DNA of 64,000 bases from an uncultured Alphaproteobacteria bacterium (GTDB lineage Bacteria > Electryoneota > RPQS01), in contig CAZPKG010000001.1 of the NCBI GenBank assembly GCA_964587105.1, positions 115,508 to 179,507 of the forward strand, written 5' to 3'. Below the pieces are notes generated by a model. The model was not told the DNA's origin. It did not search any database and saw only the letters and a program-made list of their open reading frames with translations. This document shows, one piece after another, positions 16,644 through 38,336 of this stretch. The first letter of the stretch is position 1. The number at the start of each line of letters is the position of its first letter. A program made the translations under genes and the position numbers.

Positions 16644-16692
16644 CAGGAAACTTGGAATTTGGGTCCCATATTTTACTCCGCGGAGGTGTCCC

Positions 16693-18612
16693 ATGGAGCG
16701 GCGCGTTATTTTGGTCTTGATGATTGTTTGTTCAGTATTTACGAGTGCATTTGCGAAAAATGCCAAAGATCGTTTGGTTGGGCCGGCGGCAACGACAGGT
16801 TTTGAATCGGTTTCTGCGGCAAGTGTGCAGAGGTTGCCGGGAAGTCCTCTGGATACAGAGGGCGGTACCGAAAACTCAACTTATGCTGTTGTTGGTACAA
16901 CTTGGTATGACTACCAAACCAACGGCACGAACGGCAAGCAGATTGCAGTTGATCCGACTGGAAAAGTACATGTGGCTTGGACGAATGGAGAGCAAGATGG
17001 CTCGGCCGAACGTCATGTTTATTACAACGTGTGGGATCCTGAGCTTGGAAGCTTCATGTTTAATGGCGGTGTGCGCGTGGATGCCGGATCGCGCGCGGGA
17101 TTTGCCAACATTGCGGCGGCTGCGAACGGATTTGGTTTCCCGGCATTTCACGAGGTAGCGATTTCGCTGCCGCATGCGACGGCATCAATTGACTTCTTGC
17201 CTACCAGCGGTGCGTTTACGGGGTTCGAGGTTCCTTATCCGGCAGGCGAACCGCAGATTATCTGGCCACACATTGATATGGATATCAACGGCAAGATTCA
17301 CATGGTCGCGACGGAGAGTGGCGGGGCTTCAGCAGACTATTATGCGCGCGGAGTGCCGCAGTATGACGGCGGATTTGGTTTGGAAATTGTCTGGGAGCAA
17401 GGTTTTGATACCCCGTTTGTCGATGCGACATTTATCACGATGGATGTGGCGTGCTCACGCTCGAGTGAAAAGGTTGCCGTGGCGTGGATTGCCGATCCGG
17501 TTGGTGACCATGATAGCGAGAACATTTGGATGAAAGTCTCGGACGACGGCGGCGAGTCGTGGGGCGATGACATTCCTGTTACAAACATTCCGCCGATTGA
17601 TACCATGTGCGTGATTAACGGCGGCGATTGGATTACCTGCAATGCGGATACGTTCCGTCCGTGGGTGGATTTGTCGATTATCTTGGATGATCAAGACAAC
17701 GTACACATTGCTTATACGGCGCAGGCGTCGTTCTATTTTGATGAAACGGGTGCTGCGAATCCGGCCGGTTACGTCTATGCGACGTTGTGGCACTGGGGCG
17801 AAGATCGTAGAGAATTTAGCTTGATTAATCAGGCTTATTTTGCTAACGACTCCGTCGCACTCGGCGTGAATAATTTGATGTGTCATCGTCCCAGTTTGGC
17901 GATTGATACGACAACGGACTATCTGTATTGCTCGTTCCAGCAGTTTGACCAGCACGCTTACAGCGACGCGGGCTATCCGATGGGTGAATTTTATATGACG
18001 GTTTCGACGGATAACGGACAGACGTGGGCGGTTGCTACAAATGTGAGCAACACGCCGGGTGAGCCGAATCAGGTCACAGGCGAAGACCCGAGTGAACGCG
18101 ATATTACTACTGCGAAGTATGTGACCGACGGTATCATTCACACGATGTACCAGCACGATTACGCGGCAGGCAGCGCGGTGGCGTCGAGCGGTCCGGAAGG
18201 TCCGACGAGTTTGAACGAGATGATTTACATGCAGATTCCGGTTGGTGATATTCCGACGGAGCCGCGGCAGGAAATCTGGGCGTTCCGTGCGGACTCGACC
18301 GGTTTCCCGCAGATTGAATTGGCCGAAGAGCGTGCTGAATTGCCTGCGGGTTTCATGCTGCATCAGAACTATCCGAATCCGTTTAATCCGACGACGAACA
18401 TTCAGTTTGATTTGGCGAAGGCCGCGAATGTCAGATTGACTGTGTTTGACGTGACGGGTCGTGAAGTTGCGACTTTGATCAATAATGAAACTCTGGGCGC
18501 CGGAGTTCACACGGTGAATTTTGACGGGACAGGATTTTCCAGCGGCGTCTATTTTACGAAGCTTGAGATGGGCGGAACTTCTATGACGCGGAAAGTGGTT
18601 TTGTTGAAATAG
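16693..18612 (+). CDS. BNR/Asp-box repeat (sialidase-fold-like) secreted protein with T9SS CTD
   Basis: Start ATG at 16693 after GGAGGTGTCCC. Signal peptide MERRVILVLMIVCSVFTSAFA. Asp-box motifs SDDGGESW and STDNGQTW. C-terminal YPNPFNPTTNIQFDL...VYFTKLEMGGTSMTRKVVLLK. Confidence 0.7.
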   Translation: MERRVILVLMIVCSVFTSAFAKNAKDRLVGPAATTGFESVSAASVQRLPGSPLDTEGGTENSTYAVVGTTWYDYQTNGTNGKQIAVDPTGKVHVAWTNGEQDGSAERHVYYNVWDPELGSFMFNGGVRVDAGSRAGFANIAAAANGFGFPAFHEVAISLPHATASIDFLPTSGAFTGFEVPYPAGEPQIIWPHIDMDINGKIHMVATESGGASADYYARGVPQYDGGFGLEIVWEQGFDTPFVDATFITMDVACSRSSEKVAVAWIADPVGDHDSENIWMKVSDDGGESWGDDIPVTNIPPIDTMCVINGGDWITCNADTFRPWVDLSIILDDQDNVHIAYTAQASFYFDETGAANPAGYVYATLWHWGEDRREFSLINQAYFANDSVALGVNNLMCHRPSLAIDTTTDYLYCSFQQFDQHAYSDAGYPMGEFYMTVSTDNGQTWAVATNVSNTPGEPNQVTGEDPSERDITTAKYVTDGIIHTMYQHDYAAGSAVASSGPEGPTSLNEMIYMQIPVGDIPTEPRQEIWAFRADSTGFPQIELAEERAELPAGFMLHQNYPNPFNPTTNIQFDLAKAANVRLTVFDVTGREVATLINNETLGAGVHTVNFDGTGFSSGVYFTKLEMGGTSMTRKVVLLK

Positions 18613-18727: not shown

Positions 18728-18769
18728 CAGAGCATGGGTCCCGCGTTCATTTTTCACTGGAGGTGTCCC

Positions 18770-20575
18770 GTGAAGCGCGTGGTTTTATTCAGTTTAGTTT
18801 TTGGGTTGGTTTCGGTTGTCTTTGCCCAAGAGGGCGGCACGCCGGGTTCGGTGTGGATGTATGTGGGGAGTACGTGGTATGACGCTCAAGCTTCTATAAC
18901 TCCCGCGCGAGCAATCGCAGTGGCTCCTGATGGTGAGGTACACTTTGTTTGGACCAAAGGGAGTCAAGATTTGGCATTTCGACAGGCGTTCTACAATTGT
19001 TGGAATACAGAAGCTGGCACGCTGTTAAGCCCTGAAGGTATTCGGATCAGCGCTGGCCGAACCGGTTTTCCTTCAGTTGCGTCCGGCCAGTTTGGCCACG
19101 CACTCGCGGCTTACCACGACAATGGAGGTTCACAAGTCGAAATCAAGCCAGCGATTGAATTCCTCCCTTGCAGTGGAGCGTTCACTCTGAATCTTGATTT
19201 CCCAGAGCCTCCGGTTAATACATACTTCCCGAAATCGGATGTTGATCGTTTAGGTGCATTTCATGTAGCAGGAACTTTAGAGGACAATACCGCGATCAGC
19301 GTGTTTCACGCCCGTGGAATTCCTGCGTATGAAGACGGCACAGGCTACGGAATTGACTGGGAACACACGACGACTTTACAGTCAGTTGATTACGTATATA
19401 ATACAGTCAATATCGCGTGCTCGCCTGTGTCCGATCGTGTCGCGATAGCATGGATAGTTGATCCGCCCGCAGCAAACGACGCGGAGAACATCTTGTTGTC
19501 TTACTCAGAGGATGGCGGTTGGAATTGGAACCCGCCTATATCGGTTACCGGAATTCCTGCGATTGACACGAACTGTGTTGTTGAAGGCGGCAATTGGCGT
19601 GTGTGCAACGCAGACACGTTCCGACCTTTTCGAGACTTGTCTATGATCTTTGACTACGATGATTTTCTGCATATTGCGTTTACTACAAGAGGATGGTACT
19701 ATTTCGACGAAAATGGCGACCCGAATTCAACGGTTAATACTAACGGCTCTATATGGCACTGGAGTGAAGAGGGCTTCTTCAGCCTGATAGCTTATGCATC
19801 TTCGGAACATGACTCCACGAGATTTTTAGGCGACGATAATTTGATGTGTCAACGTCCGTGTTTGGCACTTGACACCTTGAACTTTGGTCTTCATGATCCT
19901 CAATTAATTTGCTCGTTCCAGCAATTTGACAGCTTGGCTTATAGTAGTGGCGGATACGCAATCGGAGAGTATTTTGTCTCCGGCTCATATGATAGGGGGA
20001 GAAATTGGGCGATTCCTACAAATGTGAGTAATACTCCGGGAGAAATGAATGATCCCGAGGGACAGAATCCAAGCGAGCGGGATATTACGATTGCGAAGCT
20101 TGCTTATGACAATTCTATCCACGCCTTGTATTTGCACGATTATGTTGCGGGTTCGACCGGTTGGGATCAGACGCCTGCTCACTTGTGCTCACTCGTTTAC
20201 ATGCGAACGCCTATTGAAGATATCGATATGTCCCGTCTGCAGGAGAACATCCCGTTTCGAGCGGACTCGACTGGGTTCCCCACTGCCAGTGACCAAATTT
20301 CTCCCCTGAAAATCTCTTTTGAATTGCATCCTAATTACCCCAATCCGTTTAATCCGAGCACAACGATTCAGTTTGATTTGGCGAAGGCGGGGGATGTGAA
20401 ATTGATGGTGTTTGATGTGTTGGGGAAGGAAGTGGCGACGCTTGTAAACGGGAGAATGGGTGCGGGAGCGCGTTCGGCCCAGTTTGACGGTGAGAAGTTT
20501 GCGAGCGGAGTTTATTTTGCGCGGTTGTCGGTGGGGAAATTGGCGATGACGCGGAAGATGGTGCTCTTGAAATAG
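18770..20575 (+). CDS. BNR/Asp-box repeat secreted protein with T9SS CTD, tandem paralog of 16693..18612
   Basis: Track ORF starts at 18734. The conserved GGAGGTGTCCC-GTG context supports a GTG start at 18770, giving VKRVVLFSLVFGLVSVVFAQ. It is colinear with the upstream paralog (VGSTWYDAQ.../VGTTWYDYQ..., VSNTPGE...PSERDIT...). Asp-box-like SEDGGWNW and SYDRGRNW. CTD ...YPNPFNPSTTIQFDL...KMVLLK. Confidence 0.7.
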   Translation: MKRVVLFSLVFGLVSVVFAQEGGTPGSVWMYVGSTWYDAQASITPARAIAVAPDGEVHFVWTKGSQDLAFRQAFYNCWNTEAGTLLSPEGIRISAGRTGFPSVASGQFGHALAAYHDNGGSQVEIKPAIEFLPCSGAFTLNLDFPEPPVNTYFPKSDVDRLGAFHVAGTLEDNTAISVFHARGIPAYEDGTGYGIDWEHTTTLQSVDYVYNTVNIACSPVSDRVAIAWIVDPPAANDAENILLSYSEDGGWNWNPPISVTGIPAIDTNCVVEGGNWRVCNADTFRPFRDLSMIFDYDDFLHIAFTTRGWYYFDENGDPNSTVNTNGSIWHWSEEGFFSLIAYASSEHDSTRFLGDDNLMCQRPCLALDTLNFGLHDPQLICSFQQFDSLAYSSGGYAIGEYFVSGSYDRGRNWAIPTNVSNTPGEMNDPEGQNPSERDITIAKLAYDNSIHALYLHDYVAGSTGWDQTPAHLCSLVYMRTPIEDIDMSRLQENIPFRADSTGFPTASDQISPLKISFELHPNYPNPFNPSTTIQFDLAKAGDVKLMVFDVLGKEVATLVNGRMGAGARSAQFDGEKFASGVYFARLSVGKLAMTRKMVLLK

Positions 20576-22980: not shown

Positions 22981-23265
22981 GAGAAATGGTTATCTTTCTA
23001 AGCCCTGCATGGATTCACTTCTGTGCCGGGGGCTTTTGCTTTTGGCTAAATCAATAGAAGATAAACACCTGAACGAGGATTTGCAAGACATGGCGCGGAA
23101 AATAGTTTGCTCCGTCCCGTGGACAGCAAAACTGCCTGTCCTGAGGGCTTTTTGCCTCCCCCATTTTGGACTGCAACACAGTCCCGATTCCTATACCGCT
23201 GGGACTCTGAATGAGTTCCGCGCGTGTCCATCCCGTGATTTGTTACTTGTTGTGGAGGTTATACG

Positions 23266-26200
23266 ATGAAGTTTAAGACATTGCTTTTCGCCGGTTGCAT
23301 TCTGCTCGTCTCGGGGTTGGCAAATGCGCAGTTCAATGCGACACTTTACGATTTCAATGGCGAATTGACCGATGCGTGCACAGGTGGTACACCCTACCCA
23401 GATAATGCCGTCACGATCGAAATCTTCTGGGATGACAATGCGAGCGGCCCGGATCCAACGGACGAACAGCCTGTGGTTGGCGACGGGTTTGCTGAATGCA
23501 ATTTCAATAGCTTCTTGATCAACGGCGAACAGTTCGGATTACCGGGGACTTTCTACACGGACCCGTTGTTCACAATCTCAACTGTAACTCCTCAGCCGTC
23601 GCTGTATTGGCTACGCATATGTGACAATGCGAATGGGATTATGTGGATCAGCGACACCGTACGTATCTTGAACGGCCTGAATGACTACGATTTTGGTGGA
23701 CTGTTCACATGCCATGATTCAACTTGTGGCGGCTGTACGAATCCAACTACAGTATTGGGATTCCAGGCGACGGATGTATCATGCTCACAAGTCTCGATGA
23801 CTTGGAACGCTTATCCTGCAGATCAAGATGTTGATTCGCTTTTCATCTATCGAACCAACGATCAGACATTGGTGACAAGACTGGCTCGGACGGCAACAAG
23901 TTTCAACTACACAAATGCGCCGGATGGGACTTTCAATTACTACATTAAGGCACGCAAGATTTGTGCGGCTCCGGCCGATACGTCTTTCTCAACAGCGGCA
24001 TCCGACTTCGGAACTCGCGTTGCTGCGGCCATTCCACCTGCGGACACATCGTTCACGGCATTTCCGCATCCTACGCAGTGTGGTGCGGTTATTTTGCAAT
24101 GGCGTGTGCCAACAAGTTTGGCAACAATTGATTCATTCAGTGTGTTCTTGAATGGAGTTCTGTACGACAGAACAGGCCCGGGACTTCCGAACCAGCAGCA
24201 GCGTGACACCGTTTTTACGGGGCTATCCGGAGTCCAAAACTACACGGTATCTGGCTGGAGTGAAGAGTGTGGTAATGGTGTTCAGACGATTGCCCGCCAA
24301 GCTACTGCGGCACAACCTCCTGCGCAAGTGACGGGATTGACAGCTTCGACGGGGCTGTGTTCAGTCAACTTAGCGTGGACAGCAGTGCCGGGGGCGACGA
24401 GCTATATTGTGCGCCGTAACGGTTCTCAGATCGGAACTCCTGTGACGAATAGCTTCTCGGATGCGACGGCAACTGTAAATACGGTTTTTGCCTACACCGT
24501 TTCGGCAGTTAACACGTCGTTCCCGGCGGCCTGTCAGGAAGGTGCACAATCAACTTCGGCGAACGGATCGAGAATAGGTACGCCACTCGCGCCAACAAGT
24601 GTGGTGGCCAGTGACTCGACGTTCTGTACGCATGTGGCTATCAGTTGGACGGACAATAGCTCTGATGAATCGGGCTTTGTGGTTCGTCGCGACGGCGCGA
24701 CCATTGTTACAACAGCAGCTGGTGTAACATCGTTCAATGATTCGTTGGCCACTGCAGGGAATCACAACTATGACGTAGCCGCGACCAATACGTGCGGAAC
24801 CAGTACATTCGCAACTGTGAATGTGGGTTCAAAGAAGGCGGTGCCAACAACACCGACTGGACTTCTGGCGACCGACAATCTGCCGACCCATGTTCGCGTC
24901 ACTTGGAATGCGATTATTCGTGAAACCAATATGCGAGTGTTGCGTAACGGCGTTTTACTGGCCACAATTCCTGCAGACTCTGTCGGATACAACGACTTGA
25001 CGGCGGTGGCAGGCCAGGTCTATGCCTACTCAGTTCTGGGTTTCAATGAATGTGGCGACGGTGCTGTGTCTAACGTTGATTCTGGACGCGTGTTGGCTTC
25101 ACTGAACGCCCCAACGAACATTCTTGCTACAGATAACCTTTGTGATCGCGTTACCGTGACCTGGACGGATAACAACTCCGCTCCGCAGGAAACGAGTCAT
25201 TCGATCTTGCGCGACGGAGTGATTGTTGGGAACGTCGGTGCGAACATTACGACATTTGACGACTTCACGGGTACGCCGGGCGTTGTCTATGCTTATAACG
25301 TTCAGGCCGAAGGTACGGGCGGCCCGGCCATTGGAGTTACGCCGGATAACGGAAAGCGCCGGGCGGCGCCTGCGGCTCCGGTGATTGCGGCGGACTCGGT
25401 GGATTGTGAAACCGTCTATGTGAGCTTTACACGCGCCGCGGATTCGGACTCGACGATCTTCTTCCTTGACGGCGTTCAATCGGTACATTCCACTTCGGCA
25501 TCCGGCGCGCTTTCAATTGCCTTGAATGATGACGCTGTGCATGTTCTGACAGCTCAAAGCGCGAATGCCTGTGGTCGTGGAACGGCGACAACTGGAATCA
25601 ATGTGCAACGTGATCAAACACCGACCGGCATTTTGAATCTTGCCGGAACGAGCACAGATTGTAATACGATTCAGGTGACGTGGACTTCGCCAGTTGATGC
25701 TACGAGCTTTGACATGTACATGGATGGCGTTCCACAGGGCAACGTTGCTGCTACTGTACCCCAGCCAGTAACATTGATTTCCGGAAATGGTCCCGCAACG
25801 CGCCAGATCTACTTCATTTCGCGAAATGCTTGTGGAGTTGGTGATACAAGTAACGTGATCAACGTTAGTGTTCAACAAGCTCCGACCGCACCAACAAACG
25901 TCGCTGCGTCTGACACCTCGTGTGCATTGGTTTACGTGACGTGGACAGCGTCCAGCGGCGACGTGGATGGCTATACTGTTCTTGAAGGTGCAAACGTTGT
26001 GGGTTCAACTGGACCGGGAGTGACTACATTCTCTTATGATCCGGGCAACAGCGATGTTCATCAATACACGGTGTTCGCGTTCAGCACGACCTGCGGCAAC
26101 TCTGCGTCTGCCGGACCTGATGCGGGTAACAAGGTTGCGCAGCCGGGCGTTCCGACTAACTTGACGTTTGCGAATAACAGCTGTGACAGCATTCGTATCT

Positions 26201-29200
26201 CGTGGGACGCGGCGAGTGGTTCTCCTGCCAGCTACGTGATTATCGAAAACGGCGACAGTGTCGCCTCGACCACTAACTTGCACTTCGAGTATGTGCCTGC
26301 AGGTGGGCCGGGAACGTATGATATCAGTGTGGCATCGTATTCAGCGTTTTGCGGTACGGGTACACCCTCAGCCCCGGTCGCAATTATTTTGTTCGCGCAA
26401 CCCACGCCGGTAAGCGGGCTGACTGCTTCAAGCAATCGTTGTGACGGCGTGCAGTTGGCGTGGAATACCTACACAGGTATCAATGACGGCTTCATTATTT
26501 ATCGCAACGGCGTACTGGTCACGACGACCGCGGCTGATGCAGTTGGATATTTTGACGCGGCGGCCGGTCTGGGAGCAAATCACTATGCCGTGATCACACT
26601 CTCGAATTTGACGGGCTGTGCCGAGTCTGATTCGGCGACGGCAAACGGTGCGGTTCTTCCGCTCCCCACCGTTCCGACCAACGTTGCGGCGACCGATACG
26701 TCGTGCGCCGATGTGTTTGTGACTTGGACGGCTTCCAGCGGCACTCTCGATGGGTATATTGTCTATCGCGGCGGAGTTCAAATCGCGACTGTGAATGCAC
26801 CGGCTACGAGCTATACTGATACAGGTATTTCTGGTGGCACGACGGCGGCTTATACAGTGGCTGCATTTGATGACATTTGCGGCACCTCAAGCCAATCGAC
26901 CGGCGATAACGGCACGCGCCTGCAAGGGCCGGCGGCGCCGACGGGTGTTGTCGCGTCTGACAATAGCTGTACTCAAGTTGACATAACTTGGAACACGGCT
27001 CCGGGTGACGTGACCGAGTATCGAGTCTATCGTAGCGGCGTGTTCATTGGCTCTGTGACACCTCCGACTACTTCATTTACGGACGCGATTGCGACAGGGA
27101 CGTTTGCTTACACTGTTACGGCGTTCAGCACGAACTGTGGAGAGACGGCTCAATCCGTTGCAGATGACGGAACCCGTCTGCCGCAAATGGGACAGGTGAC
27201 CGGCGTAACGGCGTCTGTTGACAGTTGCCAAGGGATTCTGGTGACGTGGGCGGCGCATTTGGGCGCAGTTAGCTACCGCATTTCTCGTGATGCTTCATTT
27301 ATCGCTGAAGTCAATGCACCGACGCTTCAGTATTTCGACAACACGGTGGCTGAAGGCGTTACGCACAGCTATACCGTGGCAGCGGTTAATCCGTGCAATA
27401 CGGGTGTTGAGTCTGGGGCGGCTGTGGGTTCGCGCGCTTCGACGCCATCGCAAGTGACGGGTTTGACCGCGTCAACTAACTTGGTCAGCCAGGTTTGTTT
27501 GAGCTGGACAGACGTGACAGGTGAACTTAGCTATCATATCTACCGTGACGCCGTTCTGATTGCTACAAACGGCGCGGATGACGTTGACTACTGTGATATT
27601 ACAGCTACACCGGGCACGACATACACTTATACCGTTGCGGCCGCGAATGTTTGTGGCGAAGGCACTCTCTCCGTCGGCGCGCAAGGTTCGGCAGTGTTCA
27701 GCCTCGGTCAAGTGACAGGATTGGCCGCGACCACGACCGATTGTGCGCAGATTTGCCTGACGTGGACGGATATTTCTAATGAGACCGGTTACGAAATTTT
27801 GCGTAACGGCACGACACTGGCAACGGTCGGCGCAGGAGTGGTTACCTATTGCGACTTAACACCCGCTCCGGGTGAGTGTTTCACATATGTGGTCCGAGGC
27901 TTTAACATCGGCGGCAACGGTCCGCTTTCGGCTGAAGTTCAGGGTTGCCGTCGGAGTATCCCGACTCAGGTGACGGGACTTACGACGACGAGTACGAATT
28001 GCAATGCGGTCGTGTTGAACTGGAACGACGCGACAGATGAAGATCGCTATGACGTCTATCGAGACGGCGGATTGTTGGTTCAAAACGTCGGCGCGCTGAC
28101 TTATACTGATAACTCGGCTGTGGCCGGAGTTGTGTATGCATACACGATTTTGGCTGTCAACGCCTGTGGCAATGCGCCGCAGAGCGTTGCCGTAAACGGC
28201 GTTCGTGCAATGACCCCGCCGCCGGTTACCGGCGGAGTCGCCTCGATAGACGTTTGTAACCAGATTGGCTTGAATTGGTCGGATCAACTCTCGGAACTTG
28301 GCTATCGCATTTATCGTGACGGTAACTTCCTGACTCCGATTGCAACGGTCAATGCGAATACGACCATCTATGTTGACGCGAATATTACCGGCTCACATAC
28401 CTATAATATCCGCGCATTCAATGATTGCGGCAACGGCGACCTGAGTGCTGACATTGTCGGCCTCGGTTTGACCACCCCGGGTATTGCTACGAACGTGGCA
28501 GCGGTTGAAAACTGCGGCGACGTTACGGTCACATGGACAGCGCCGAATACGACTCCGATTACAGAGTACCGTATTTTGCGCAACGGCGTTCAGGTCGGCG
28601 TTGTATCGGCTCCGGCGACGACGTATCAAGACTTGAATCTTCCGGCGGGAAGCTACAACTACCGCGTGGTGACAGCGAACCAGTGCGGAGCGGGCACGCA
28701 ATCGGCGCAGAGCAACGGCGTGACGGTTATCCCCACTCTGGTGCAAGTTCCGACCTTTACCGCGACCGCCAGCCCGTGCTTCTGTATCGACGTGACATGG
28801 GGCAACGTGGCCAATGAAGACGGTTACTATCTCTATTGTGACGGCGTGATTGTGGATACGTTGGGTGCGAACGTGACCTCGACAAACTACTGTCCTGCAG
28901 ATACGCAGTCTTGCGTCGTGCAAGTAGCGGCGTTCAATGCGTGCGAAATCGGACCGTTGTCGGTTGGAAATTCGGTTACTCCGAATACATATCCGGCGAT
29001 GGTCAGCGGATTCTCGGCAAGCGAAAATATTTGTGACCGCGTGCGCTTGACTTGGAATGCATATAACCAGCCGGGCGTAACGAGACTGAAGATTCGTCGC
29101 GACGGCGTGGCGATCGCAACTCTGTTGTCGGGCAACACGTCGTTTGAACAGCTTGGTTTGTGGCCGCAGAGCGTTTACAGCATCACAGCCTTGCGCGTGT

Positions 29201-31674
29201 GCGCCGCCGGCGATACGATTGAAGCTCCGCTTGCGATTGACAATGGCCGGACGGCTCCGACGCCTGCTGCTCCAACGCAGATGGCTGCATCGGATGACGG
29301 CTGTGGTATCGTAACGGTGACATTTACGTTCGCAAATGTGGATGGTCAAGACTCGGTGATGGTGAAGCGCAATGGCGTTATCATTGCCCGTCTTGCGGGT
29401 GGCGTGGCAAACGTGCAGCGATCATTTGTTGATACCAGCCCGCTGGGTGTGACGGCGACCTATGAAGTCTGCCCGGTTTCGAATTTGTGCGGTCAGGGCG
29501 GATGTGCCAGCGATCTGGGCCAAGCGGCTCCGACGGCAGGTCTTGTAACCGACGTGACGGCAACAACCGATCGTTGTACTTCGATTATCGTCAGTTGGAC
29601 CGGAACGCAGTTCGCTTTGAACTATCAGGTTCGTCGAAATGGAACGCTGATCGCCACCGTGCCGCAAGGACAGTTTTCCCATACGGACAACGTCTCGACC
29701 GGCGTGGTGAATACCTATACTGTAACGGCTACAAACGCGTGCGGAAGCGGACCGCAGTCACAACCTGCGCAAGGTTCGACGATTCCGTTGCCGCCTGTTC
29801 CGACCGGAGTTTCGGCTTCAGACGGTTTGTGCAACCAGGTTGTTGTGACCTGGAATGAGATCGGCGTTGCGACGGGTTATGAAGTGTGGCGCAACAACGC
29901 GCTCTTGGCCGAAGTGCCGGGCGGTGTTGAAGTGTACACGGACCTTGCCGTGACACCGGGAACGACTTACAACTATCAAGTGCGCGGCGTTAACCAGTGC
30001 GGCAGCGGCAACTTGTCGGCAGCAACGACAGGTTTCTCGGCGCAAGTGATTACAACTGTCACAAACGTCGTAGCGACGACGAATTTGAATGACCGCGTCC
30101 GCATCACGTGGAACAACGTTCCGCAAGAAACGGGCTATCAGATTCTGCGCGGCTTCCCGGCGGAAGTGATTGCAACGGTCGGCATTGACGTGACCAGCTA
30201 CAATGACTTCTCGGCAGCTCCGGGTGAAGAGTATGAATACCGCGTGCGGGCATTTAACGGTTGCGGCGAAGGCGAAATGTCCGTCGTGACATACGGATAC
30301 CGCGTGCCGGTAGATCCCATTCCGTTCGGCGTCATAACCGTTACTGAAGAGTTGTTCGGCTGTTTGTCGGCGGTAGCGCAGGATATGGATAACGACGGCG
30401 ACGCGGACGTTGTGGCCGCCGGTATGTTTGCGGACAAAGTAGTGTGGTACGAGAATACGGGCACGTGGGATTACATTCCTCACGTCGTGGTCGAGAACTG
30501 GGATGGCGCGCGCTCGGTTGCGGTCGGCGATATTGACGACGACGGCGACATAGACATCGCGGCTGTGGCGCAGTTTGCCGATCAGCTGGTGTGGTTCCGC
30601 CACAATGCCAACGGCACATATACGACCTTCGTCATTGCGAATAATTACGACGGCGCGCGTGACGTGTCCATTGTGGACCTTGACCGCGACGGCGACAAGG
30701 ACCTCGTGACGGCAGCCTGCGACGCGAACGATATTTCTTGGTGGCGTAATAACGGTACGGAAACATTTACCCGCGTCGTGGTGGATAATAACTTCATTGG
30801 CGCGCGCACCGTGGAAGTCAAGGATATCGGCGGCGACAACGATTGGGACATTCTGGCGTCGGCCTACGAAGGTGGAATGCTGGCGTGGTACTCAAACAAC
30901 GGTACACAGACGTTTACGCGCAACGTGCTGATGTCTGACGTGTATGGCGCGTCGTATATCAGCGCGGCCCGCTTGAACAGTGATAACGTGCTGGATATCT
31001 ACTTCTGCGTCGCGCAACAGCCGATGATCGGATGGATTGACGGCGCAACGCAAACATTCCATGAAGTGACGACGTTGGTTCCGTTCCCGCGCGAAATGGA
31101 CGCGGTGGACATGGATCAGGATAATCGCGCGGATCTCTTGCTGGCGGCCAACGAGAACCAGGAAATTTCGTGGTGGCGCAATACAGACAACCGTTTCTAT
31201 CGCAATCCGATTACGACTACTCTGACGCAGGCGTCCGTGGTACATGGTGGTGACTTTGACAACGACGGCGACAATGACGTGTTGGGCGCAGGCGAAGGCA
31301 CCATCAAGATTTGGCTGTCGGCACTGTCGGACGATACGCATGAATCCGAACTTATCATTCCGCAGGATGACGGAACCGACAAGCCGACCTATAGCCAGTC
31401 GATCGTTCCGTTGAACTACGAACTGTCGGCGAACTACCCGAACCCGTTCAATCCGATGACGCAAATTCGGTTCGGTTTGCCGGAAGCACAGAATGTCAAG
31501 CTGACGGTGTATGACGTGACCGGTCGTGAAGTCGCCCGATTGGTGGACGGCTCGTTCGGAGCGGGTTACCATACCGTGACGTTTGATGCGACGAATCTGG
31601 CCAGCGGATTGTATCTGTATCGCATCGAAGCGGGTGACTTCGTGTCGAGCCGCAAGATGATCTTGATGAAGTAA
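23266..31674 (+). CDS. Giant (2802 aa) T9SS cargo protein with about 26 tandem FN3-like repeats, a 7-bladed FG-GAP/VCBS beta-propeller and a T9SS CTD. Putative cell-surface adhesin.
   Basis: RBS GGAGGTTATACG-ATG. Signal peptide MKFKTLLFAGCILLVSGLANA. About 26 units of roughly 90 aa, each with the pattern P..PT.(V/L).A(S/T)D..C..V.(V/L)TW...........Y.(V/I).R.G..(I/V)....TS(Y/F)TD......Y.Y.V.A.N.CG. Seven D(M/I/L/F)D.DGD.D FG-GAP calcium-binding blades (DMDNDGDAD ... DFDNDGDND). It ends YPNPFNPMTQIRFGL...VSSRKMILMK. Confidence 0.85.
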   Translation: MKFKTLLFAGCILLVSGLANAQFNATLYDFNGELTDACTGGTPYPDNAVTIEIFWDDNASGPDPTDEQPVVGDGFAECNFNSFLINGEQFGLPGTFYTDPLFTISTVTPQPSLYWLRICDNANGIMWISDTVRILNGLNDYDFGGLFTCHDSTCGGCTNPTTVLGFQATDVSCSQVSMTWNAYPADQDVDSLFIYRTNDQTLVTRLARTATSFNYTNAPDGTFNYYIKARKICAAPADTSFSTAASDFGTRVAAAIPPADTSFTAFPHPTQCGAVILQWRVPTSLATIDSFSVFLNGVLYDRTGPGLPNQQQRDTVFTGLSGVQNYTVSGWSEECGNGVQTIARQATAAQPPAQVTGLTASTGLCSVNLAWTAVPGATSYIVRRNGSQIGTPVTNSFSDATATVNTVFAYTVSAVNTSFPAACQEGAQSTSANGSRIGTPLAPTSVVASDSTFCTHVAISWTDNSSDESGFVVRRDGATIVTTAAGVTSFNDSLATAGNHNYDVAATNTCGTSTFATVNVGSKKAVPTTPTGLLATDNLPTHVRVTWNAIIRETNMRVLRNGVLLATIPADSVGYNDLTAVAGQVYAYSVLGFNECGDGAVSNVDSGRVLASLNAPTNILATDNLCDRVTVTWTDNNSAPQETSHSILRDGVIVGNVGANITTFDDFTGTPGVVYAYNVQAEGTGGPAIGVTPDNGKRRAAPAAPVIAADSVDCETVYVSFTRAADSDSTIFFLDGVQSVHSTSASGALSIALNDDAVHVLTAQSANACGRGTATTGINVQRDQTPTGILNLAGTSTDCNTIQVTWTSPVDATSFDMYMDGVPQGNVAATVPQPVTLISGNGPATRQIYFISRNACGVGDTSNVINVSVQQAPTAPTNVAASDTSCALVYVTWTASSGDVDGYTVLEGANVVGSTGPGVTTFSYDPGNSDVHQYTVFAFSTTCGNSASAGPDAGNKVAQPGVPTNLTFANNSCDSIRISWDAASGSPASYVIIENGDSVASTTNLHFEYVPAGGPGTYDISVASYSAFCGTGTPSAPVAIILFAQPTPVSGLTASSNRCDGVQLAWNTYTGINDGFIIYRNGVLVTTTAADAVGYFDAAAGLGANHYAVITLSNLTGCAESDSATANGAVLPLPTVPTNVAATDTSCADVFVTWTASSGTLDGYIVYRGGVQIATVNAPATSYTDTGISGGTTAAYTVAAFDDICGTSSQSTGDNGTRLQGPAAPTGVVASDNSCTQVDITWNTAPGDVTEYRVYRSGVFIGSVTPPTTSFTDAIATGTFAYTVTAFSTNCGETAQSVADDGTRLPQMGQVTGVTASVDSCQGILVTWAAHLGAVSYRISRDASFIAEVNAPTLQYFDNTVAEGVTHSYTVAAVNPCNTGVESGAAVGSRASTPSQVTGLTASTNLVSQVCLSWTDVTGELSYHIYRDAVLIATNGADDVDYCDITATPGTTYTYTVAAANVCGEGTLSVGAQGSAVFSLGQVTGLAATTTDCAQICLTWTDISNETGYEILRNGTTLATVGAGVVTYCDLTPAPGECFTYVVRGFNIGGNGPLSAEVQGCRRSIPTQVTGLTTTSTNCNAVVLNWNDATDEDRYDVYRDGGLLVQNVGALTYTDNSAVAGVVYAYTILAVNACGNAPQSVAVNGVRAMTPPPVTGGVASIDVCNQIGLNWSDQLSELGYRIYRDGNFLTPIATVNANTTIYVDANITGSHTYNIRAFNDCGNGDLSADIVGLGLTTPGIATNVAAVENCGDVTVTWTAPNTTPITEYRILRNGVQVGVVSAPATTYQDLNLPAGSYNYRVVTANQCGAGTQSAQSNGVTVIPTLVQVPTFTATASPCFCIDVTWGNVANEDGYYLYCDGVIVDTLGANVTSTNYCPADTQSCVVQVAAFNACEIGPLSVGNSVTPNTYPAMVSGFSASENICDRVRLTWNAYNQPGVTRLKIRRDGVAIATLLSGNTSFEQLGLWPQSVYSITALRVCAAGDTIEAPLAIDNGRTAPTPAAPTQMAASDDGCGIVTVTFTFANVDGQDSVMVKRNGVIIARLAGGVANVQRSFVDTSPLGVTATYEVCPVSNLCGQGGCASDLGQAAPTAGLVTDVTATTDRCTSIIVSWTGTQFALNYQVRRNGTLIATVPQGQFSHTDNVSTGVVNTYTVTATNACGSGPQSQPAQGSTIPLPPVPTGVSASDGLCNQVVVTWNEIGVATGYEVWRNNALLAEVPGGVEVYTDLAVTPGTTYNYQVRGVNQCGSGNLSAATTGFSAQVITTVTNVVATTNLNDRVRITWNNVPQETGYQILRGFPAEVIATVGIDVTSYNDFSAAPGEEYEYRVRAFNGCGEGEMSVVTYGYRVPVDPIPFGVITVTEELFGCLSAVAQDMDNDGDADVVAAGMFADKVVWYENTGTWDYIPHVVVENWDGARSVAVGDIDDDGDIDIAAVAQFADQLVWFRHNANGTYTTFVIANNYDGARDVSIVDLDRDGDKDLVTAACDANDISWWRNNGTETFTRVVVDNNFIGARTVEVKDIGGDNDWDILASAYEGGMLAWYSNNGTQTFTRNVLMSDVYGASYISAARLNSDNVLDIYFCVAQQPMIGWIDGATQTFHEVTTLVPFPREMDAVDMDQDNRADLLLAANENQEISWWRNTDNRFYRNPITTTLTQASVVHGGDFDNDGDNDVLGAGEGTIKIWLSALSDDTHESELIIPQDDGTDKPTYSQSIVPLNYELSANYPNPFNPMTQIRFGLPEAQNVKLTVYDVTGREVARLVDGSFGAGYHTVTFDATNLASGLYLYRIEAGDFVSSRKMILMK

Positions 31675-31709
31675 TGCGAACCCGCGCAACGGTTTGCATC
31701 TGAAATACA

Positions 31710-31738
31710 CAAAGCGACGGAGTTACTCCGTCGCTTTG
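31710..31738 (+). terminator. Hairpin CAAAGCGACGGAG-tta-CTCCGTCGCTTTG after the giant gene
   Basis: 13-bp perfect stem with a weak U-tract. Confidence 0.5.
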
Positions 31739-31795
31739 TGCTCGTAATATGTGGTACTGCTACTGTCACTTCAACCGGAATTACCGGAGCACAAT

Positions 31796-33817
31796 ATGTC
31801 TGAAGCGTTAGATCGTCTGAGTATTAACACGGTGCGTGGTTTAGCAATTGACGCGGTTCAAGCGGCGAACTCGGGGCATCCTGGATTGCCGCTTGGAGCC
31901 GCAGTGATGGGCTACACGATTTTTCAGAAGCATCTGCGGCATAATCCGCTTGATCCGGCTTGGGTGAATCGAGATCGATTTGTTCTGTCGGCGGGACATG
32001 GTTGCGCGCTGTTGTATTCGTTGCTGCATTTGACAGGTTACGATTTGCCGATGGAGCAACTTAAGAAATTTCGTCAATGGGACAGCATCACGCCGGGGCA
32101 TCCAGAGTTAGGGATGACGCCGGGCGTGGAAGCGACGACTGGTCCGCTTGGTCAAGGCGTCGGAAATATCGTGGGGATCGCAATAGCGCGCGAAATGCTG
32201 GCAGCGATGTTCAATCGAGAAGGGCACGACGTTATCAATTTCCGCGTGTTTGGAATTTGTTCCGACGGCGATTTGATGGAAGGAGTGGCGGCGGAAGCAG
32301 CTTCGCTTGCGGGCCATCTCGGACTTGGATCGATTGTCATGCTTTATGACGATAATCACATCACGATTGACGGTTCAACTGAGATTGCGTTCACTGAAGA
32401 CGTCGGCGTGCGATTTGAAAGCTACGGCTGGCAAGTTTTAGCGTGCGACGGGATGAACGCAGACGAAGTGGATCAAGCCATTCGCGAGGGGATTGCCGAG
32501 AGCGAGCGACCGACGTTGATTCGCTGCCGAACGCAGATTGGCTATGGTTCTCCGAACCGCGCAGGCACTTCGAAGGTGCATGGCGCGCCGCTGGGTGATG
32601 AAGAGTTGTCTTTGACCAAAAAAGCGCTCAGCTTGCCTGAGAACGAGAAATTCTATGTTGCTTCGGAAGTTTTCAAGTATATGGGCGCGGCGCGGCAATC
32701 GGGCGCGGAACGTCAGGCGGCTTGGCAGAGTTCATTAGAAAAATCGTTTGCGGCGAATGCTGGATTGCAGCATCTGTGGCAGCAATTTTGGTCACGCAGA
32801 CTGCCGGAAAATTGGGCCGACAAGCTTCCGACGTGGAAAACAACGGATAAGCCGATTGCCACGCGCAAGGCCTCGGAGATGTGTTTACATGCGGTGACAG
32901 AATTGCCGTGGATCGTCGGCGGCAGCGCGGACTTGGTGGAATCGAATCTCACTTATCTTGAAGGCAAGGGTGATTTTCAGCGCGATCATCATGCGGGCCG
33001 CAATATTCGATTCGGGATTCGTGAGCACGGCATGGGTGCGATCCTGAACGGACTGGCTGCCAGCGCGCCATTCATCGCGTTTGGCGCTACGTTCATGAAT
33101 TTTCTCGATTACATGAAACCGTCAGTGAGAATCGCGGCATTGTCGCATTTGCCGGTGCTGTATATTTTCACACATGACAGCATTGGCTTGGGCGAAGACG
33201 GCCCGACGCACCAGCCTATTGAGCACTTGACGCACATGCGCGCTACGCCGAACTTGTGGACCATGCGGCCGGCTGATGCGAATGAAACCGCGCAGTGCTA
33301 CCGAGTAGCGCTCGAGCGTACGGATGGGCCGGTGGCGCTGTGTTTGACGCGCCAGGCGTTGCCGATTCTTGAGTACCCAGGCGAACGGTTGCCGGTTGAG
33401 TTGGGCGCCTATGTTCTCGCGGAAGCGAAGAACGAAAAGCCGGAGATAATCCTCATGGCGAGCGGAAGTGAAGTGGAGATTGCGTTGGGCGCCAAGTCGA
33501 TGCTGGAACAGGAAGGGATTGCGACGCGCGTCGTATCCGTGCCGTGCGTAGAACTGTTCGACAAGCAGCCGCAAGCCTATCGCGAGCAGGTGTTGCCGGG
33601 CAATGTGCGCGCGCGCGTTGCAGTTGAGGCGGGCGCTACGTTGGGCTGGTGGAAATATATCGGGCTTGACGGCGACGTGGTGGGACTCGATCGGTTTGGT
33701 GCGTCTGCTCCCGCAAAGACTTTATATGAGAAATTCGGATTGACTGCCGAGAATGTCGCACGCCGCGCGATGTCGGTGCGTGAGCGCGCGCGCTCTGCTG
33801 AGGGAGTCTTGAAATGA
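31796..33817 (+). CDS. tkt: Transketolase
   Basis: Track ORF begins at an in-frame GTG at 31751. ATG at 31796 has a GGAG RBS. GHPG thiamine-diphosphate motif and GEDGPTHQP in the transketolase-family region. Confidence 0.9.
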
Positions 33818-34263
33818 AACTTGCAGTTGGAAGCGATCATGCGGGATTCGAACTCAAGAAAGAATTGGTAGATTGGCTGACTGCGCAAGGACACGTCGTC
33901 GTGGACGTGGGCACGCACTCAACGGAAGCCGCCGACTATCCCGATTTTGCACAGAAAGTCGGTCACGAAGTAACCGAGCGACGCGCTGAACGCGGAATCA
34001 TCGTATGCGGTAGTGGAGTGGGCGCGTGTGTGGCGGCGAACAAAATGAAGGGCATTCGCGCAGGAATGTGCCACGACACGTTTTCAGCCCGGCAGGGAGT
34101 GGAAGACGACGATATGAACACGCTGTGTTTGGGCGCGCGAATCATCGGAGGAGAACTCGCGCGCGAAGTGTTGAAGGCCTTTCTGAATGCGAAATTCTCA
34201 GGTCTCGAACGGCATCAACGTCGATTGAACAAAGTCCTCGCCATTGAGGCTGCCGGAAAGTAA
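33814..34263 (+). CDS. rpiB: Ribose-5-phosphate isomerase B
   Basis: [15 protein letters not shown]...[13 protein letters not shown] are RpiB/LacAB signatures. There is a 4-nt ATGA overlap with tkt. Confidence 0.9.
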
Positions 34264-34289
34264 GCGAACGAACAATTTAGGAGATAAAA

Positions 34290-35390
34290 ATGAGTCATCC
34301 GATTATGAAGGCCACGCTCGACTTAGGGCAGTCGTTGTGGCTTGATTACATCAGTCGGGAGTTGATGGACTCCGGCGGTCTTGAGCGACACGTTGCGGAA
34401 GGGCTGCGGGGTATGACCTCAAATCCGACTATTTTTGAGAAGGCGATTTCCGGAAGCGCGGACTATGATAACGACATTCGCAAAGGGATCGCGAGCGATC
34501 TGTCAGCCGGCGACGTGTTTGAGAATCTGGCCGTTTCTGACGTGGCGCGTGCATGCAACATGCTGTCGGGAGTGTACCACGATTCACAGGGCGTGGACGG
34601 CTATGTCAGTTTAGAAGTTTCGCCGACGCTCGCGCATGACACAAAAGGAACCGTGAAGGAAGCGCTGCGCTTGTGGGAGCGCGTGAACCGTCCGAACTTA
34701 ATGATCAAAGTTCCCGGCACGTCGGCGGGGATTCCTGCCGTTCTGGAACTCCTGACGCGTGGAGTGAATGTAAATATTACGTTACTGTTTACATTGGACC
34801 AGTACAAGCAGGTGCTTGAGACATACATTCAAGCTCTGGAAGCGCGCCATGCCGCTGGACAAAATCTCGCTCAAATGGCGTCAGTTGCGAGTTTCTTCAT
34901 CAGCCGAATTGATTCAGTGGCCGACGCGCAGCTTGAAAAACTGGGACGCAAAGACTTGATGGCTAAGGGTGCGATTGCGAACGCCTGTTTGGCTTACAAG
35001 CACTTTCAAAATGTCACCGCCTCGCCACGCTGGCAAAAGCTTGCACAGGCCGGCGCGCGCGTCCAAAGACCACTCTGGGCATCAACATCAACCAAGAATC
35101 CCGAGTACTCAGATGTACTCTATATCGAAGAACTGATCGCGGATCATACCGTGAATACCGTCCCGCCGCAAACGCTGTCGGCATTTAAGGATCACGGCAA
35201 GCCCGCTCTGAAGCTGCTGAAGAACATGGAAACGGCGGACAAGACTCTGACGGAAATGAAAAGCCTCGGAGTTGACATTGACAAGATTGCCTTCGATTTG
35301 ATTGAAGACGGCGTGGTCAAATTTGCTCAGTCGTTCGACGCGATGCTTGGCGCAATTAGTTCAAAGCTGAAAGCCGGCGCGACGGCATAG
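34290..35390 (+). CDS. tal: Transaldolase
   Basis: SLWLDYISRE...TSNPTIFEKAI...NLMIKVPGT...NITLLF is the transaldolase signature including the Schiff-base lysine region. Confidence 0.9.
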   Translation: MSHPIMKATLDLGQSLWLDYISRELMDSGGLERHVAEGLRGMTSNPTIFEKAISGSADYDNDIRKGIASDLSAGDVFENLAVSDVARACNMLSGVYHDSQGVDGYVSLEVSPTLAHDTKGTVKEALRLWERVNRPNLMIKVPGTSAGIPAVLELLTRGVNVNITLLFTLDQYKQVLETYIQALEARHAAGQNLAQMASVASFFISRIDSVADAQLEKLGRKDLMAKGAIANACLAYKHFQNVTASPRWQKLAQAGARVQRPLWASTSTKNPEYSDVLYIEELIADHTVNTVPPQTLSAFKDHGKPALKLLKNMETADKTLTEMKSLGVDIDKIAFDLIEDGVVKFAQSFDAMLGAISSKLKAGATA

Positions 35391-35411
35391 CAGTATTTCA
35401 AATTGAAAACT

Positions 35412-35449
35412 AAAAAGCGGCAGACCGGAATGGCCTGCCGCTTTATTTT
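35412..35449. terminator. Bidirectional terminator GCGGCAG-loop-CTGCCGC-TTTATTTT between tal (+) and the carbonic anhydrase gene (-)
   Basis: 7-bp GC stem flanked by an A-run on the left and a T-run on the right. Confidence 0.7.
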
Positions 35450-35465
35450 GCGATCTTTAGTGCAC

Positions 35466-36308
35466 TTAGTGTTTGTACTTTGAGCCGCTGGTTTTGCGCG
35501 AGGCTTCTGAATGCTCAGAAGAGGATTTGTCATCCTTCTTTTCAGTTTTGGCTACTGACTTATGCGAATCACCCGCCTTGGTTTCTTCGGCTTTGGGAGC
35601 TTCAGCTACGGGATGAGACTCAGCTTCAGCTTTCTGCATGGCCACTGCACCAAGCTGAGATTGCCACAACACCGCGCCGGATTCGATGTCGTACACTGCC
35701 GAAAGCACGACGCAATTTCCGTCTGAGACGGCCTGTTCAATTTCGCGGGAACCTGAGATTAGAATGGAAGCACCGTTGCGCGCATTTTCTTTGATCACTC
35801 CCGAATAGAGATCGTCGGCGCCGTAGCCTTTTGACTGGCAAGCTTCAACGCTTGGTCTGATTTCATTCACGAGAGTGTTGAGTGGCTCAGGAAAATCGGA
35901 TTCTGACAAGGCCGCTCCGACTGCGCCGCACTTGGTGTGGCCCATGACGAGCACAACTGGACAATGCAAATGACCTACTGCATAATCTGCCGATGCTTGC
36001 ACCTCTTTTGGCGTGACGTTTCCGGCCACGCGGATCACGAACAGCTCGCCGAGACCGGCGTCGAAAATCTGTTCTGGCGGGACACGCGAGTCCGAACATG
36101 TGATGATGCAGGCATAAGGCGTTTGACCGGCCGAGAGATGCTCACGCTTGGTTGCGCCGCTATCCCAGACCTTCGGTTTGCCTTTCACAAAGCGTTCATT
36201 GCCTTTTTGCAGATTGGTCATGGCCTGATCAACCGTCCAAGCCGGGGCGTTGTCGTTCGCAAACGCGACTGCGCAAGAAACGAATATGAGTATGAAGATT
36301 CTAAACAT
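35466..36308 (-). CDS. Secreted beta-class carbonic anhydrase with K/E/S-rich disordered C-terminal tail
   Basis: Signal peptide MFRIFILIFVSCAVAFA. CSDSRVPPE and HxxCGAV zinc-ligand motifs. The roughly 60-aa tail is lysine, glutamate and serine-rich. Confidence 0.85.
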   Translation of the reverse strand: MFRIFILIFVSCAVAFANDNAPAWTVDQAMTNLQKGNERFVKGKPKVWDSGATKREHLSAGQTPYACIITCSDSRVPPEQIFDAGLGELFVIRVAGNVTPKEVQASADYAVGHLHCPVVLVMGHTKCGAVGAALSESDFPEPLNTLVNEIRPSVEACQSKGYGADDLYSGVIKENARNGASILISGSREIEQAVSDGNCVVLSAVYDIESGAVLWQSQLGAVAMQKAEAESHPVAEAPKAEETKAGDSHKSVAKTEKKDDKSSSEHSEASRKTSGSKYKH

Positions 36309-36451
36309 TGTGTTCTCCGTTTTTGGTTAGACGGTTTCCGAAGCGCAAACCTTATTCCAGAGCGATGCAAAATGAAGCTCACCCAAAGGCGCGTTTATTG
36401 CTCGTACACATTCGACTTATCATTCAATTGGATACTCCACGTTAGCTGCAC

Positions 36452-37464: not shown

Positions 37465-37482
37465 ACGATATTTCATTGCACT

Positions 37483-37518
37483 AAGCGGCTCAGACTCACG
37501 TTGGGCCGCTTTTTTGTG
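37483..37518 (+). terminator. Probable terminator AGCGGC-15-nt loop-GCCGCT-TTTTTTGTG after the response regulator
   Basis: Weak: long loop, but a T6 tract follows. Confidence 0.45.
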
Positions 37519-37574
37519 CTTGCGATATTCACGGGCATGTCGTATATTTACGGTCAACAACCTTGTGAGGTACC

Positions 37575-38252: not shown

Positions 38253-38288
38253 ATTTAGTTCGACCACAACATAATGATAACCAACAAA

Positions 38289-38328: not shown

Positions 38329-38336
38329 ATGAGAAT

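Follow-up and report, generated by a model that had tools for sequence, protein, structure and literature searches.

Do the cysteines that recur along a giant, repetitive surface protein stabilise each repeat from within, or do they tie one repeat to the next? This question is raised by a locus in a 64,000-nucleotide (64-kb) stretch of DNA from an uncultured bacterium (assembly GCA_964587105.1, contig CAZPKG010000001.1, positions 115,508 to 179,507), which is called the window here. An uninterrupted open reading frame (ORF) lies at 23266..31674 (+), with an ATG start, 2802 codons and 0 internal stops. It was confirmed as a real and intact ORF, and its 2802-aa product is predicted to be a secreted surface protein. 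The domain architecture is certain, and consists of a putative signal peptide, an N-terminal domain of 141 aa (N-domain), 25 fibronectin type III (Fn3) repeats (R1 to R25), a predicted seven-bladed FG-GAP propeller, an acidic linker, and a type A T9SS (type IX secretion system) sorting domain. Sequence covariation and structural modelling suggest that disulfides most likely form between the modules rather than within them. It is rather probable that the protein is a cell-surface fibre of ~85-90 nm, with a stapled Fn3 shaft, a C-terminal anchor and the N-domain at its tip.

The repeats were counted with a hidden Markov model (HMM) made from the giant protein's own repeats. Exactly 25 Fn3 copies were found at aa 163-2352, gapless, each 85-98 aa long (mostly 85-88) and each with E <=1.4e-8; a 26th match inside the propeller was rejected as noise (E=0.34, -2.5 bits). 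An earlier note, made from this DNA sequence without database searches, had given about 26 repeats, each with two conserved cysteines, and had proposed disulfide-stabilised modules. The count has to be corrected to 25, and the cysteine pair holds for most of the repeats but not for all. Of the 25 repeats, 22 carry the first cysteine (Cys1, consensus ..sC..V.vtW) and 23 the second (Cys2, consensus ..n.CG.G..S). On the cysteine map, the array falls into three blocks on the + strand: R1-R5 (aa 163-615, 23752..25110), in which R5 lacks Cys1; R6-R15 (aa 616-1482, 25111..27711), in which R6 lacks Cys2 and R15 lacks Cys1; and R16-R25 (aa 1483-2352, 27712..30321), in which R16 lacks Cys2 and R25 lacks Cys1.

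The fold of the repeats was modelled with AlphaFold2 (AF2) for R12-R14 from 27 aligned sequences, and the strands were read from the DSSP string. The model (predicted local distance difference score, pLDDT, 96.5; predicted template modelling score, pTM, 0.78) contains seven β-strands per repeat in the order A-B-C-C'-E-F-G, the Fn3 β-sandwich fold. The loop joining strands A and B holds Cys1, and the one joining F and G holds Cys2. A Foldseek search of the PDB with this model returned tandem Fn3 arrays as all of the top matches, with E down to 4e-13. The superposition of the three domains was poor (template modelling score 0.3-0.58), which indicates that the junction geometry differs from that of the matched PDB arrays. 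Alignment to solved Fn3 domains placed Cys1 in the turn preceding strand B. By hand alignment to the tenth Fn3 domain of fibronectin, we take Cys2 to match the arginine of the RGD motif on the FG loop of that domain. No solved structure with the same two-cysteine pattern was found in the PDB alignments to the matched chains. In an up-down sandwich of this kind, the loops after odd-numbered strands (AB, CC', EF) form the C-terminal pole, and those after even-numbered strands (BC, C'E, FG) form the N-terminal pole. The two cysteines of a repeat, Cys1 on the AB loop and Cys2 on the FG loop, are at opposite poles, about one domain length apart, and therefore no bond is expected within one repeat. 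Fn3 topology suggests instead that, across a short linker, the AB loop of repeat n would face the FG loop of repeat n+1.

If Cys1 of one repeat is bonded to Cys2 of the next, the two should be lost together. The losses in the giant protein agree with this, since R5 and R15 lack Cys1 where R6 and R16 lack Cys2, and R25, which also lacks Cys1, is followed by no further repeat. Both cysteine positions were mapped in every protein retrieved by a repeat-profile search of 1.84 billion representative proteins, which gave a covariation sample of 809 junctions in 59 proteins whose arrays are of the Cys type. Cys1(n) and Cys2(n+1) were both present at 780 junctions, both absent at 23, and discordant at 6 (Fisher p=1e-38, which is inflated because the junction counts share ancestry; separate co-loss events were therefore also checked by eye). 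Cys1 and Cys2 of the same repeat showed no such coupling (919 both present, 3 both absent, 81 discordant; p=0.42), and neither did Cys2(n) and Cys1(n+1) (739, 0 and 74, respectively; p=0.40). The separate co-loss events were located at 5/6 and 15/16 in the giant-protein family, at 20/21 in the P0007/P0008/P0126 family, at 1/2 in P0129, at 3/4 in P0229, and at 6/7 in P0245. With ~5% of repeats lacking Cys1, six such coincident losses have a chance probability of ~1.5e-8. Replacement of a DNA segment was considered as a cause of co-loss and rejected, since a segment from Cys1(n) to Cys2(n+1) would include Cys2(n) and Cys1(n+1), which are both retained. Apparent Cys1 absences after gaps in P0125, P0130, P0133 and P0136 were dismissed as artefacts of truncated HMM alignments, as they vanish when the alignment is anchored on the strand-B Trp. 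The predicted Cys1(n)-Cys2(n+1) staple is thus well supported by covariation and topology. For the giant protein, 22 predicted Fn3-to-Fn3 staples are implied, together with one predicted N-domain-to-R1 staple.

The last of these staples is suggested by the N-terminal end of the ladder. The N-domain (aa 22-162, 23329..23751, + strand) is a Cys-rich β-sandwich domain with five invariant cysteines and an acidic D-x-[DN]-x-[DNS]-G-P-D loop. Three of the five cysteines belong to a C-x4-C-x2-C motif at the end of the domain, directly before R1. R1 of the giant-protein family retains its FG-loop cysteine, which in some members is shifted by a few residues, and P0144 has neither the C-x4-C-x2-C motif nor the R1 Cys2. 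Because the number of N-domain cysteines is odd, R1 keeps its FG cysteine, and P0144 lacks both partners, one more staple would join the N-domain to R1. At the level of whole arrays, the last repeat lacks Cys1 in the giant protein and in many others, and first repeats often lack Cys2; such staggered ends are as predicted by a model in which each repeat is stapled to the next.

The predicted staples would therefore run N-domain-R1, R1-R2, R2-R3, R3-R4 and R4-R5, then from R6 to R15 in series, and then from R16 to R25 in series. Under this model, all 62 conserved cysteines of the N-domain and the stalk would pair as 31 disulfides, 23 of which would be inter-domain; the remaining ones would be extra pairs within the N-domain, R15, R16, R20 and R22. 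The 62 positions are invariant in the five orthologues, except that R1 Cys2 is displaced by a few residues in two of the five. The extra invariant cysteines include a pair in R15, C1411 in strand B (27496-27498) and C1443 in strand E (27592-27594). Four more are found in R16 (codons 27754-27756, 27850-27852, 27877-27879 and 27946-27948), four in R20, and two in R22. They probably form additional intradomain disulfides. Those of R15 and R16 flank the unstapled R15/R16 junction. This junction and R5/R6 lack both partner cysteines in all five orthologues, and the two sites may act as hinges.

Two other pairings of the same cysteines have to be weighed. If each Fn3 domain had its own internal Cys1-Cys2 disulfide, as the earlier note implied, the stalk would be an ordinary flexible chain of beads. 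The presence of two conserved cysteines in most repeats agrees with this, and the extra invariant pairs in R15, R16, R20 and R22 sit where intradomain bonds fit. However, the AB-loop and FG-loop cysteines are a domain length apart at opposite poles, their losses within a repeat do not covary (3 co-losses vs 81 single losses, p=0.42) whereas those of n and n+1 do so almost perfectly, and a single orphan invariant cysteine would remain in each of R5, R6, R15, R16 and R25. The intra-repeat arrangement is thus quite improbable, and the stabilisation first proposed for the modules is not supported. The Cys1(n)-Cys2(n+1) bonds could also be formed between two parallel chains staggered by one repeat, which would give bundles or a surface mesh. 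Covariation alone cannot distinguish neighbours in one chain from such a stagger, and a matrix role is conceivable for the relatives, whose sources are flocs, mats and sediments and which include a metagenome-assembled genome (MAG) from activated sludge. Yet a tandem Fn3 chain already puts the AB loop of n opposite the FG loop of n+1, AF2 gives three repeats one confident monomer arrangement (pTM 0.78), and the staggered ends and the N-domain cysteine that apparently pairs with R1 need no partner chain. This inter-chain arrangement also has a low probability, although marginally above that of the intra-repeat bond. Staples between successive repeats of one chain remain the preferred reading of the cysteine pattern.

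These arguments depend on the copy number and order of the repeats, and the earlier note had flagged the repeat DNA (23.7-30.3 kb) as a likely hotspot of mis-assembly or collapse. This concern was not borne out. Identity between repeats is 28% on average (max 48%) at the protein level, and 29-52% (mean 41%) in codon-aligned DNA, and the longest exact DNA word common to two repeats is 15 nt. Tandem Repeats Finder (TRF) over 23000-32000 detected no tandem repeat in the gene, and just one unrelated 19-nt repeat; a direct-repeat tool returned only motif echoes of 21-35 nt in the gene. The array is repetitive at the protein level only, and its copies are old. Five independently assembled orthologues have 25, 25, 25, 25 and 24 Fn3 repeats, and the position-specific cysteine features are kept. 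When the GTDB genome set was searched by tkt, one close relative was found, the activated-sludge MAG L001, whose tkt is 92% identical. Its contig (JADKHW010000036.1) is collinear with window positions 25626-43808 in a single alignment of 80% nucleotide identity, with no repeat-sized indel, covering R8 to R25 and beyond. That this contig starts within the orthologous gene, at R8, could be read as a sign of assembly trouble in the array. Against the short shared words, the absence of a TRF array, the stable counts and cysteine pattern in five assemblies, and the collinear alignment, an artefact in the array or its copy number is extremely improbable, and the repeat region can be regarded as trustworthy in assemblies. 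Repeats that are 10 and 20 apart are slightly more alike (mean identity 0.31 and 0.36, vs ~0.275 at other offsets). R5, R15 and R25, the three repeats without Cys1, are spaced exactly 10 apart and are mutually 38-43% alike. A block of 10 repeats may have been duplicated early in the history of the stalk.

The five orthologues share 55-79% identity with the giant protein and have the same gene neighbourhood. When the giant protein was looked up by exact sequence, no identical entry was on record, and the orthologues were used for comparison. Against the closest one (79% overall), identity is 44% in the N-domain, 78% in R1-5, 73% in R6-15, 89% in R16-25, 84% in the propeller, and 100% in the C-terminal sorting domain (CTD). 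Across the orthologues, conservation within the stalk is highest in its last third, R16-R25 (62-89%), and the CTD is 76-100% identical. Conservation thus climbs steeply from the N- to the C-terminus, and the N-domain is the fastest-evolving part of the protein, which suggests diversifying selection or replacement at this domain. The N-domain was overlooked in the earlier note. It has no Pfam or NCBIfam match, and a single-sequence word-indexed search found nothing, as the domain is too divergent for the index. An HMM built from 11 homologues matched 23/59 arrays, the giant protein included, directly after the signal peptide. A sister family (P0007-P0011), which is 31-34% identical overall, has the N-domain and lacks the propeller. 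Since the core is found there without the propeller, the N-domain, stapled stalk and CTD constitute the conserved core design, and the propeller is an accessory.

The remaining domains were assigned with curated models. The FN3 stalk, FG-GAP propeller and T9SS CTD that the earlier note had read in the giant secreted protein are supported, and the three HMM matches whose absence would have refuted that note all exceed their curated cut-offs: Pfam fn3 (PF00041) with 134.2 bits vs a gathering cut-off of 25 (E=1.9e-39); FG-GAP_3 (PF13517) with 87.8 bits vs 26.9 (E=7.4e-25, 5 stretches); and Por_Secre_tail (PF18962) with 37.6 bits vs 27 (E=2.8e-9). NCBIfam TIGR04183 (T9SS type A sorting domain) gave 43.4 bits vs 23. 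Three other identities were rejected. The match to exoglucanase CbhB (NF041611; 168 bits vs 1950) is an Fn3/CTD cross-match, that to a T9SS-dependent M6-like metalloprotease (NF052323; 52 bits vs 600) covers the CTD region only, and the score of the RGI lyase β-sheet domain (PF18370) is smeared over the Fn3 repeats, with no single stretch above cut-off.

The predicted propeller (aa 2353-2700, 30322..31365, +) was defined by FG-GAP_3, the blade register and a blade HMM. Seven units are in register at ~49 aa, an HMM made from these same blades gives 7 matches, and the Asp loops produce a 147-nt DNA periodicity (direct-repeat family D1). The seven blades proposed earlier are kept as a prediction, and their description as all calcium-binding is an overstatement: only blades 1, 2, 3 and 7 carry a complete DxDxDGxxD loop. 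Blade 4 (DIGGDNDWD) and blade 6 (DMDQDNRAD) have partial loops, and blade 5 (RLNSDNVLD) is degenerate in all orthologues. The propeller is confined to the orthologue group of the giant protein, 8/59 arrays. It is followed by the acidic linker (aa 2701-2723, 31366..31434, +), read from the translation, whose conservation is low (48-91%), and by the T9SS type A CTD (aa 2724-2802, 31435..31674 including the stop, +; ..NYPNPFNP..GLYLYRIEAGDFVSSRKMILMK), assigned from PF18962 and TIGR04183. The Por_Secre_tail match covers aa 2724-2799 of 2802, at the extreme C-terminus.

At the other end, the signal peptide (aa 1-21, 23266..23328, +; MKFKTLLFAGCILLVSGLANA) was read from the translation. Judged by eye, the N-terminus (MKFKTLLFAGCILLVSGLANA/QF) has a typical n-h-c region ending ANA/Q, and it reads as a putative Sec signal peptide with Gln as the first mature residue. 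This residue, Gln22 (codon 23329-23331), is invariant in 11/11 homologues of the giant protein. Gln after the cleavage site is the 'Q-rule' of Bacteroidetes signal peptidase I (SPI) substrates, which acquire pyroglutamate N-termini; the rule is reported as not general across the Fibrobacteres-Chlorobi-Bacteroidetes (FCB) group (PMC5837995). The invariant Gln22 appears to fit this pattern (PMC5837995). Gln also follows the predicted cleavage site in at least two other secreted proteins of the window, among them those at 57355-58155 (-) and 61366-63552 (-) (..SSFA/QT.. and ..TLFA/QS.., respectively).

How might such a protein be built at the cell surface? We infer its T9SS export, anchoring, orientation, mechanics, adhesive role and actual disulfide formation along the following steps. 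The protein would be exported by Sec, with cleavage of the signal peptide and exposure of Gln22, and would then fold and be oxidised in the periplasm, where Cys1 (AB loop) of each repeat would be bonded to Cys2 (FG loop) of the next. Export by T9SS would follow, directed by the type A CTD. Characterised type A cargo loses its CTD, and its new C-terminus becomes attached to the outer membrane or surface. By analogy, the giant protein would also lose its CTD and be surface-attached by its new C-terminus. The Ca2+-type propeller would then lie at the base, the 25 Fn3 repeats would form the shaft, and the small, variable N-domain would be the distal tip contacting a target. The fast-evolving tip and conserved base agree with this C-terminal anchoring, as a fit and not as proof. 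An Fn3 domain is ~3.5 nm long, from which a stalk of ~85-90 nm is estimated.

Because successive disulfide loops (~144 residues) overlap in sequence, the staples would add up to a continuous covalent ladder. Such a rod would be stiff, protease-tolerant and nearly inextensible, and even full unfolding would lengthen it modestly at most. The hinges at R5/R6 and R15/R16 would split it into the N-domain plus 5, 10 and 10 repeats, and might be what allows its oxidation in the periplasm to precede export. In MAGs of KSB1, Zixibacteria and Eisenbacteria, proteins that carry Cys-type repeats of this kind bear the name 'T9SS type A sorting domain-containing protein'. A broader and more tentative proposal, to which we give somewhat less than an even chance, is that a serial inter-domain disulfide ladder, forming a locked, nearly inextensible rod of about 25 Fn3 domains and ~90 nm with two fixed hinges (5/10/10) and a hypervariable, stapled N-terminal binding cap, is an as yet undescribed design of bacterial surface fibre, common to T9SS cargo of several candidate FCB-related phyla (Calditrichota-like bacteria, KSB1, Zixibacteria and Eisenbacteria).

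Several points weigh against the stapled, C-terminally anchored fibre. The coupling of Cys1(n) and Cys2(n+1) is strong but not absolute. Cys1(n) is lost and Cys2(n+1) kept at five junctions, in P0257 (twice), P0185, P0237 and P0148 (where the Cys1 call depends on a truncated repeat match), and the reverse is seen at one junction, in P0122, whose first repeat is truncated. Given the extra similarity at offsets 10 and 20, the co-losses at 5/6 and 15/16 may be one duplicated event. The predicted staple geometry is deduced from Fn3 topology and covariation, and the proposed anchoring and orientation are carried over from Porphyromonas and Flavobacterium. A structural match search with the N-domain gave no informative match (Z <=7.0), and its binding role is a guess. 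No T9SS machinery gene (SprA/Sov, PorV, PorU, PorK/L/M/N) was found among the scanned proteins of the 64-kb window, and a literature search for T9SS in Calditrichota, KSB1, Zixibacteria and Eisenbacteria found nothing relevant. The five CTD proteins encoded in the window and the relatives annotated as T9SS sorting-domain proteins speak indirectly for such a machinery.

The orientation in particular admits a different account. The protein might be released or loosely attached, with the propeller as its working head (binding a ligand or carbohydrate, like integrin-type FG-GAP domains) and the Fn3 repeats and N-domain as spacer and cap, with or without staples. Some T9SS type A cargo is indeed released in other bacteria. 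Conservation in the protein is highest in the propeller and CTD (72-100%), as expected for a constrained head, and the propeller is exclusive to this one orthologue group. But the N-domain, stapled stalk and CTD recur without a propeller in P0007-P0011 and others, and high conservation near the CTD would also suit a cell-proximal base shielded from selection at the tip. A propeller head is an unlikely explanation, but one to be taken more seriously than either of the two alternative cysteine pairings. The fibre with a distal N-domain is thus retained as the preferred reading.

The neighbourhood of the giant gene contains an aminotransferase gene, a PD40-like gene (-) and tkt-rpiB-tal, an order that also occurs in GCA_964269295.1 and GCA_020637445.1, of which the second is labelled 'Calditrichaeota bacterium'. 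As synteny is conserved in these two other genomes, the giant gene is a stable chromosomal gene and no part of a mobile element. The window encodes five predicted T9SS cargo proteins. Besides the giant protein, four more Por_Secre_tail/T9SS type A proteins are encoded at 1692-2660 (-), 16615-18612 (+), 18734-20575 (+) and 56168-57331 (-), with tails like ..GVYFARLSVGKLAMTRKMVLLK; two of the four (665 and 613 aa) are adjacent and have no further Pfam match. A second very large secreted protein of 1628 aa, at 6549-11435 (-), has NosD-like β-helix and CARDB matches and no recognisable CTD. A TonB-dependent receptor with an N-terminal CarboxypepD_reg domain at 13350-15698 (+) is followed by a DUF4249 protein at 15702-16538 (+). 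Together (13350-16538) they form a SusC-like outer-membrane pair typical of the FCB group, which the Calditrichaeota-labelled relative also has upstream. A 686-aa predicted lipoprotein with a thioredoxin-like/redoxin domain and NHL repeats is encoded at 38337-40397 (-), about 7 kb downstream of the giant gene, and two other genomes have it in the same syntenic position. This lipoprotein is a candidate periplasmic thiol-disulfide oxidoreductase. At 36452-37614, relatives have an Hpt protein and then a response regulator on the + strand, and the longest ORF at 36901-37614 (-) is probably spurious.

Compared with known systems, giant Fn3-rich T9SS cargo is common and ordinary by itself, and the stapling is the point of interest. 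SprB and RemA of Flavobacterium johnsoniae and the CTD cargo of P. gingivalis combine a Sec signal peptide, a very large, repetitive β-rich body and a C-terminal sorting domain in a surface filament. The giant protein shares the very large, repetitive β-rich body and, by its tested CTD match, the C-terminal sorting domain; it is predicted to share the Sec signal peptide and the surface filament, and would work like these adhesins. Its CTD is of type A, in contrast to the type B CTD of SprB, and it comes from a non-Bacteroidota, Calditrichota-like lineage, a placement based on the submitter label of one orthologue's genome. It also differs from Bacteroidota T9SS adhesins in its Cys-bearing Fn3 stalk, predicted inter-domain disulfides and conserved N-terminal cap, and it shows no evident link to gliding. 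The unannotated but conserved N-domain would probably be the working end of a protein family that occurs in several uncultured phyla.

The best structural and sequence matches of the repeats are eukaryotic tandem Fn3 arrays (fibronectin FN7-10 and FN10-12, titin A-band, the receptor protein tyrosine phosphatases (RPTP) delta, sigma and LAR, and contactins), which have the same seven-strand fold and head-to-tail packing. In the alignments, the matched PDB chains lack Cys at both positions. These arrays are elastic or flexible, whereas the giant protein is predicted to be covalently locked. Its predicted propeller resembles integrin alpha/VCBS/FG-GAP propellers with seven blades of ~49-60 aa and DxDxDGxxD Ca2+ loops, but it has four canonical loops, lies next to the predicted membrane-anchoring end instead of the distal one, and has no known partner subunit. 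A literature search found nothing relevant on disulfides that link the domains of Fn3 arrays or adhesins. The predicted serial inter-domain disulfide stapling with fixed hinges is distinctive, with no counterpart among the matched solved structures. If true, it would give engineers a two-cysteine rule to lock tandem Fn3 scaffolds.

Other long surface rods have been stiffened by different means. Marinomonas MpIBP, SiiE, LapA-type arrays of bacterial Ig-like (BIg) domains and cadherins are long rods of ~90-aa β-sandwich repeats, in which rigidified junctions project a distal binding domain. The bacterial adhesins of this type (MpIBP, SiiE, LapA-type) use Ca2+ at the junctions and the type I secretion system; the giant protein would use S-S staples with two gaps, and T9SS. 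Gram-positive pilins and adhesins (CnaA/CnaB, Ig-like) are cross-linked within domains by Lys-Asn/Asp or Thr-Gln isopeptide, ester or thioester bonds, which suit cells without an oxidising periplasm, whereas the predicted disulfides of the giant protein link adjacent domains. Two solutions for a stiff, intact extracellular fibre one molecule thick are known, the Ca2+-rigidified junctions of Gram-negative repeats-in-toxin (RTX) adhesins and the intradomain isopeptide or ester bonds of Gram-positive pilins; if true, the disulfide ladder would be a third natural one.

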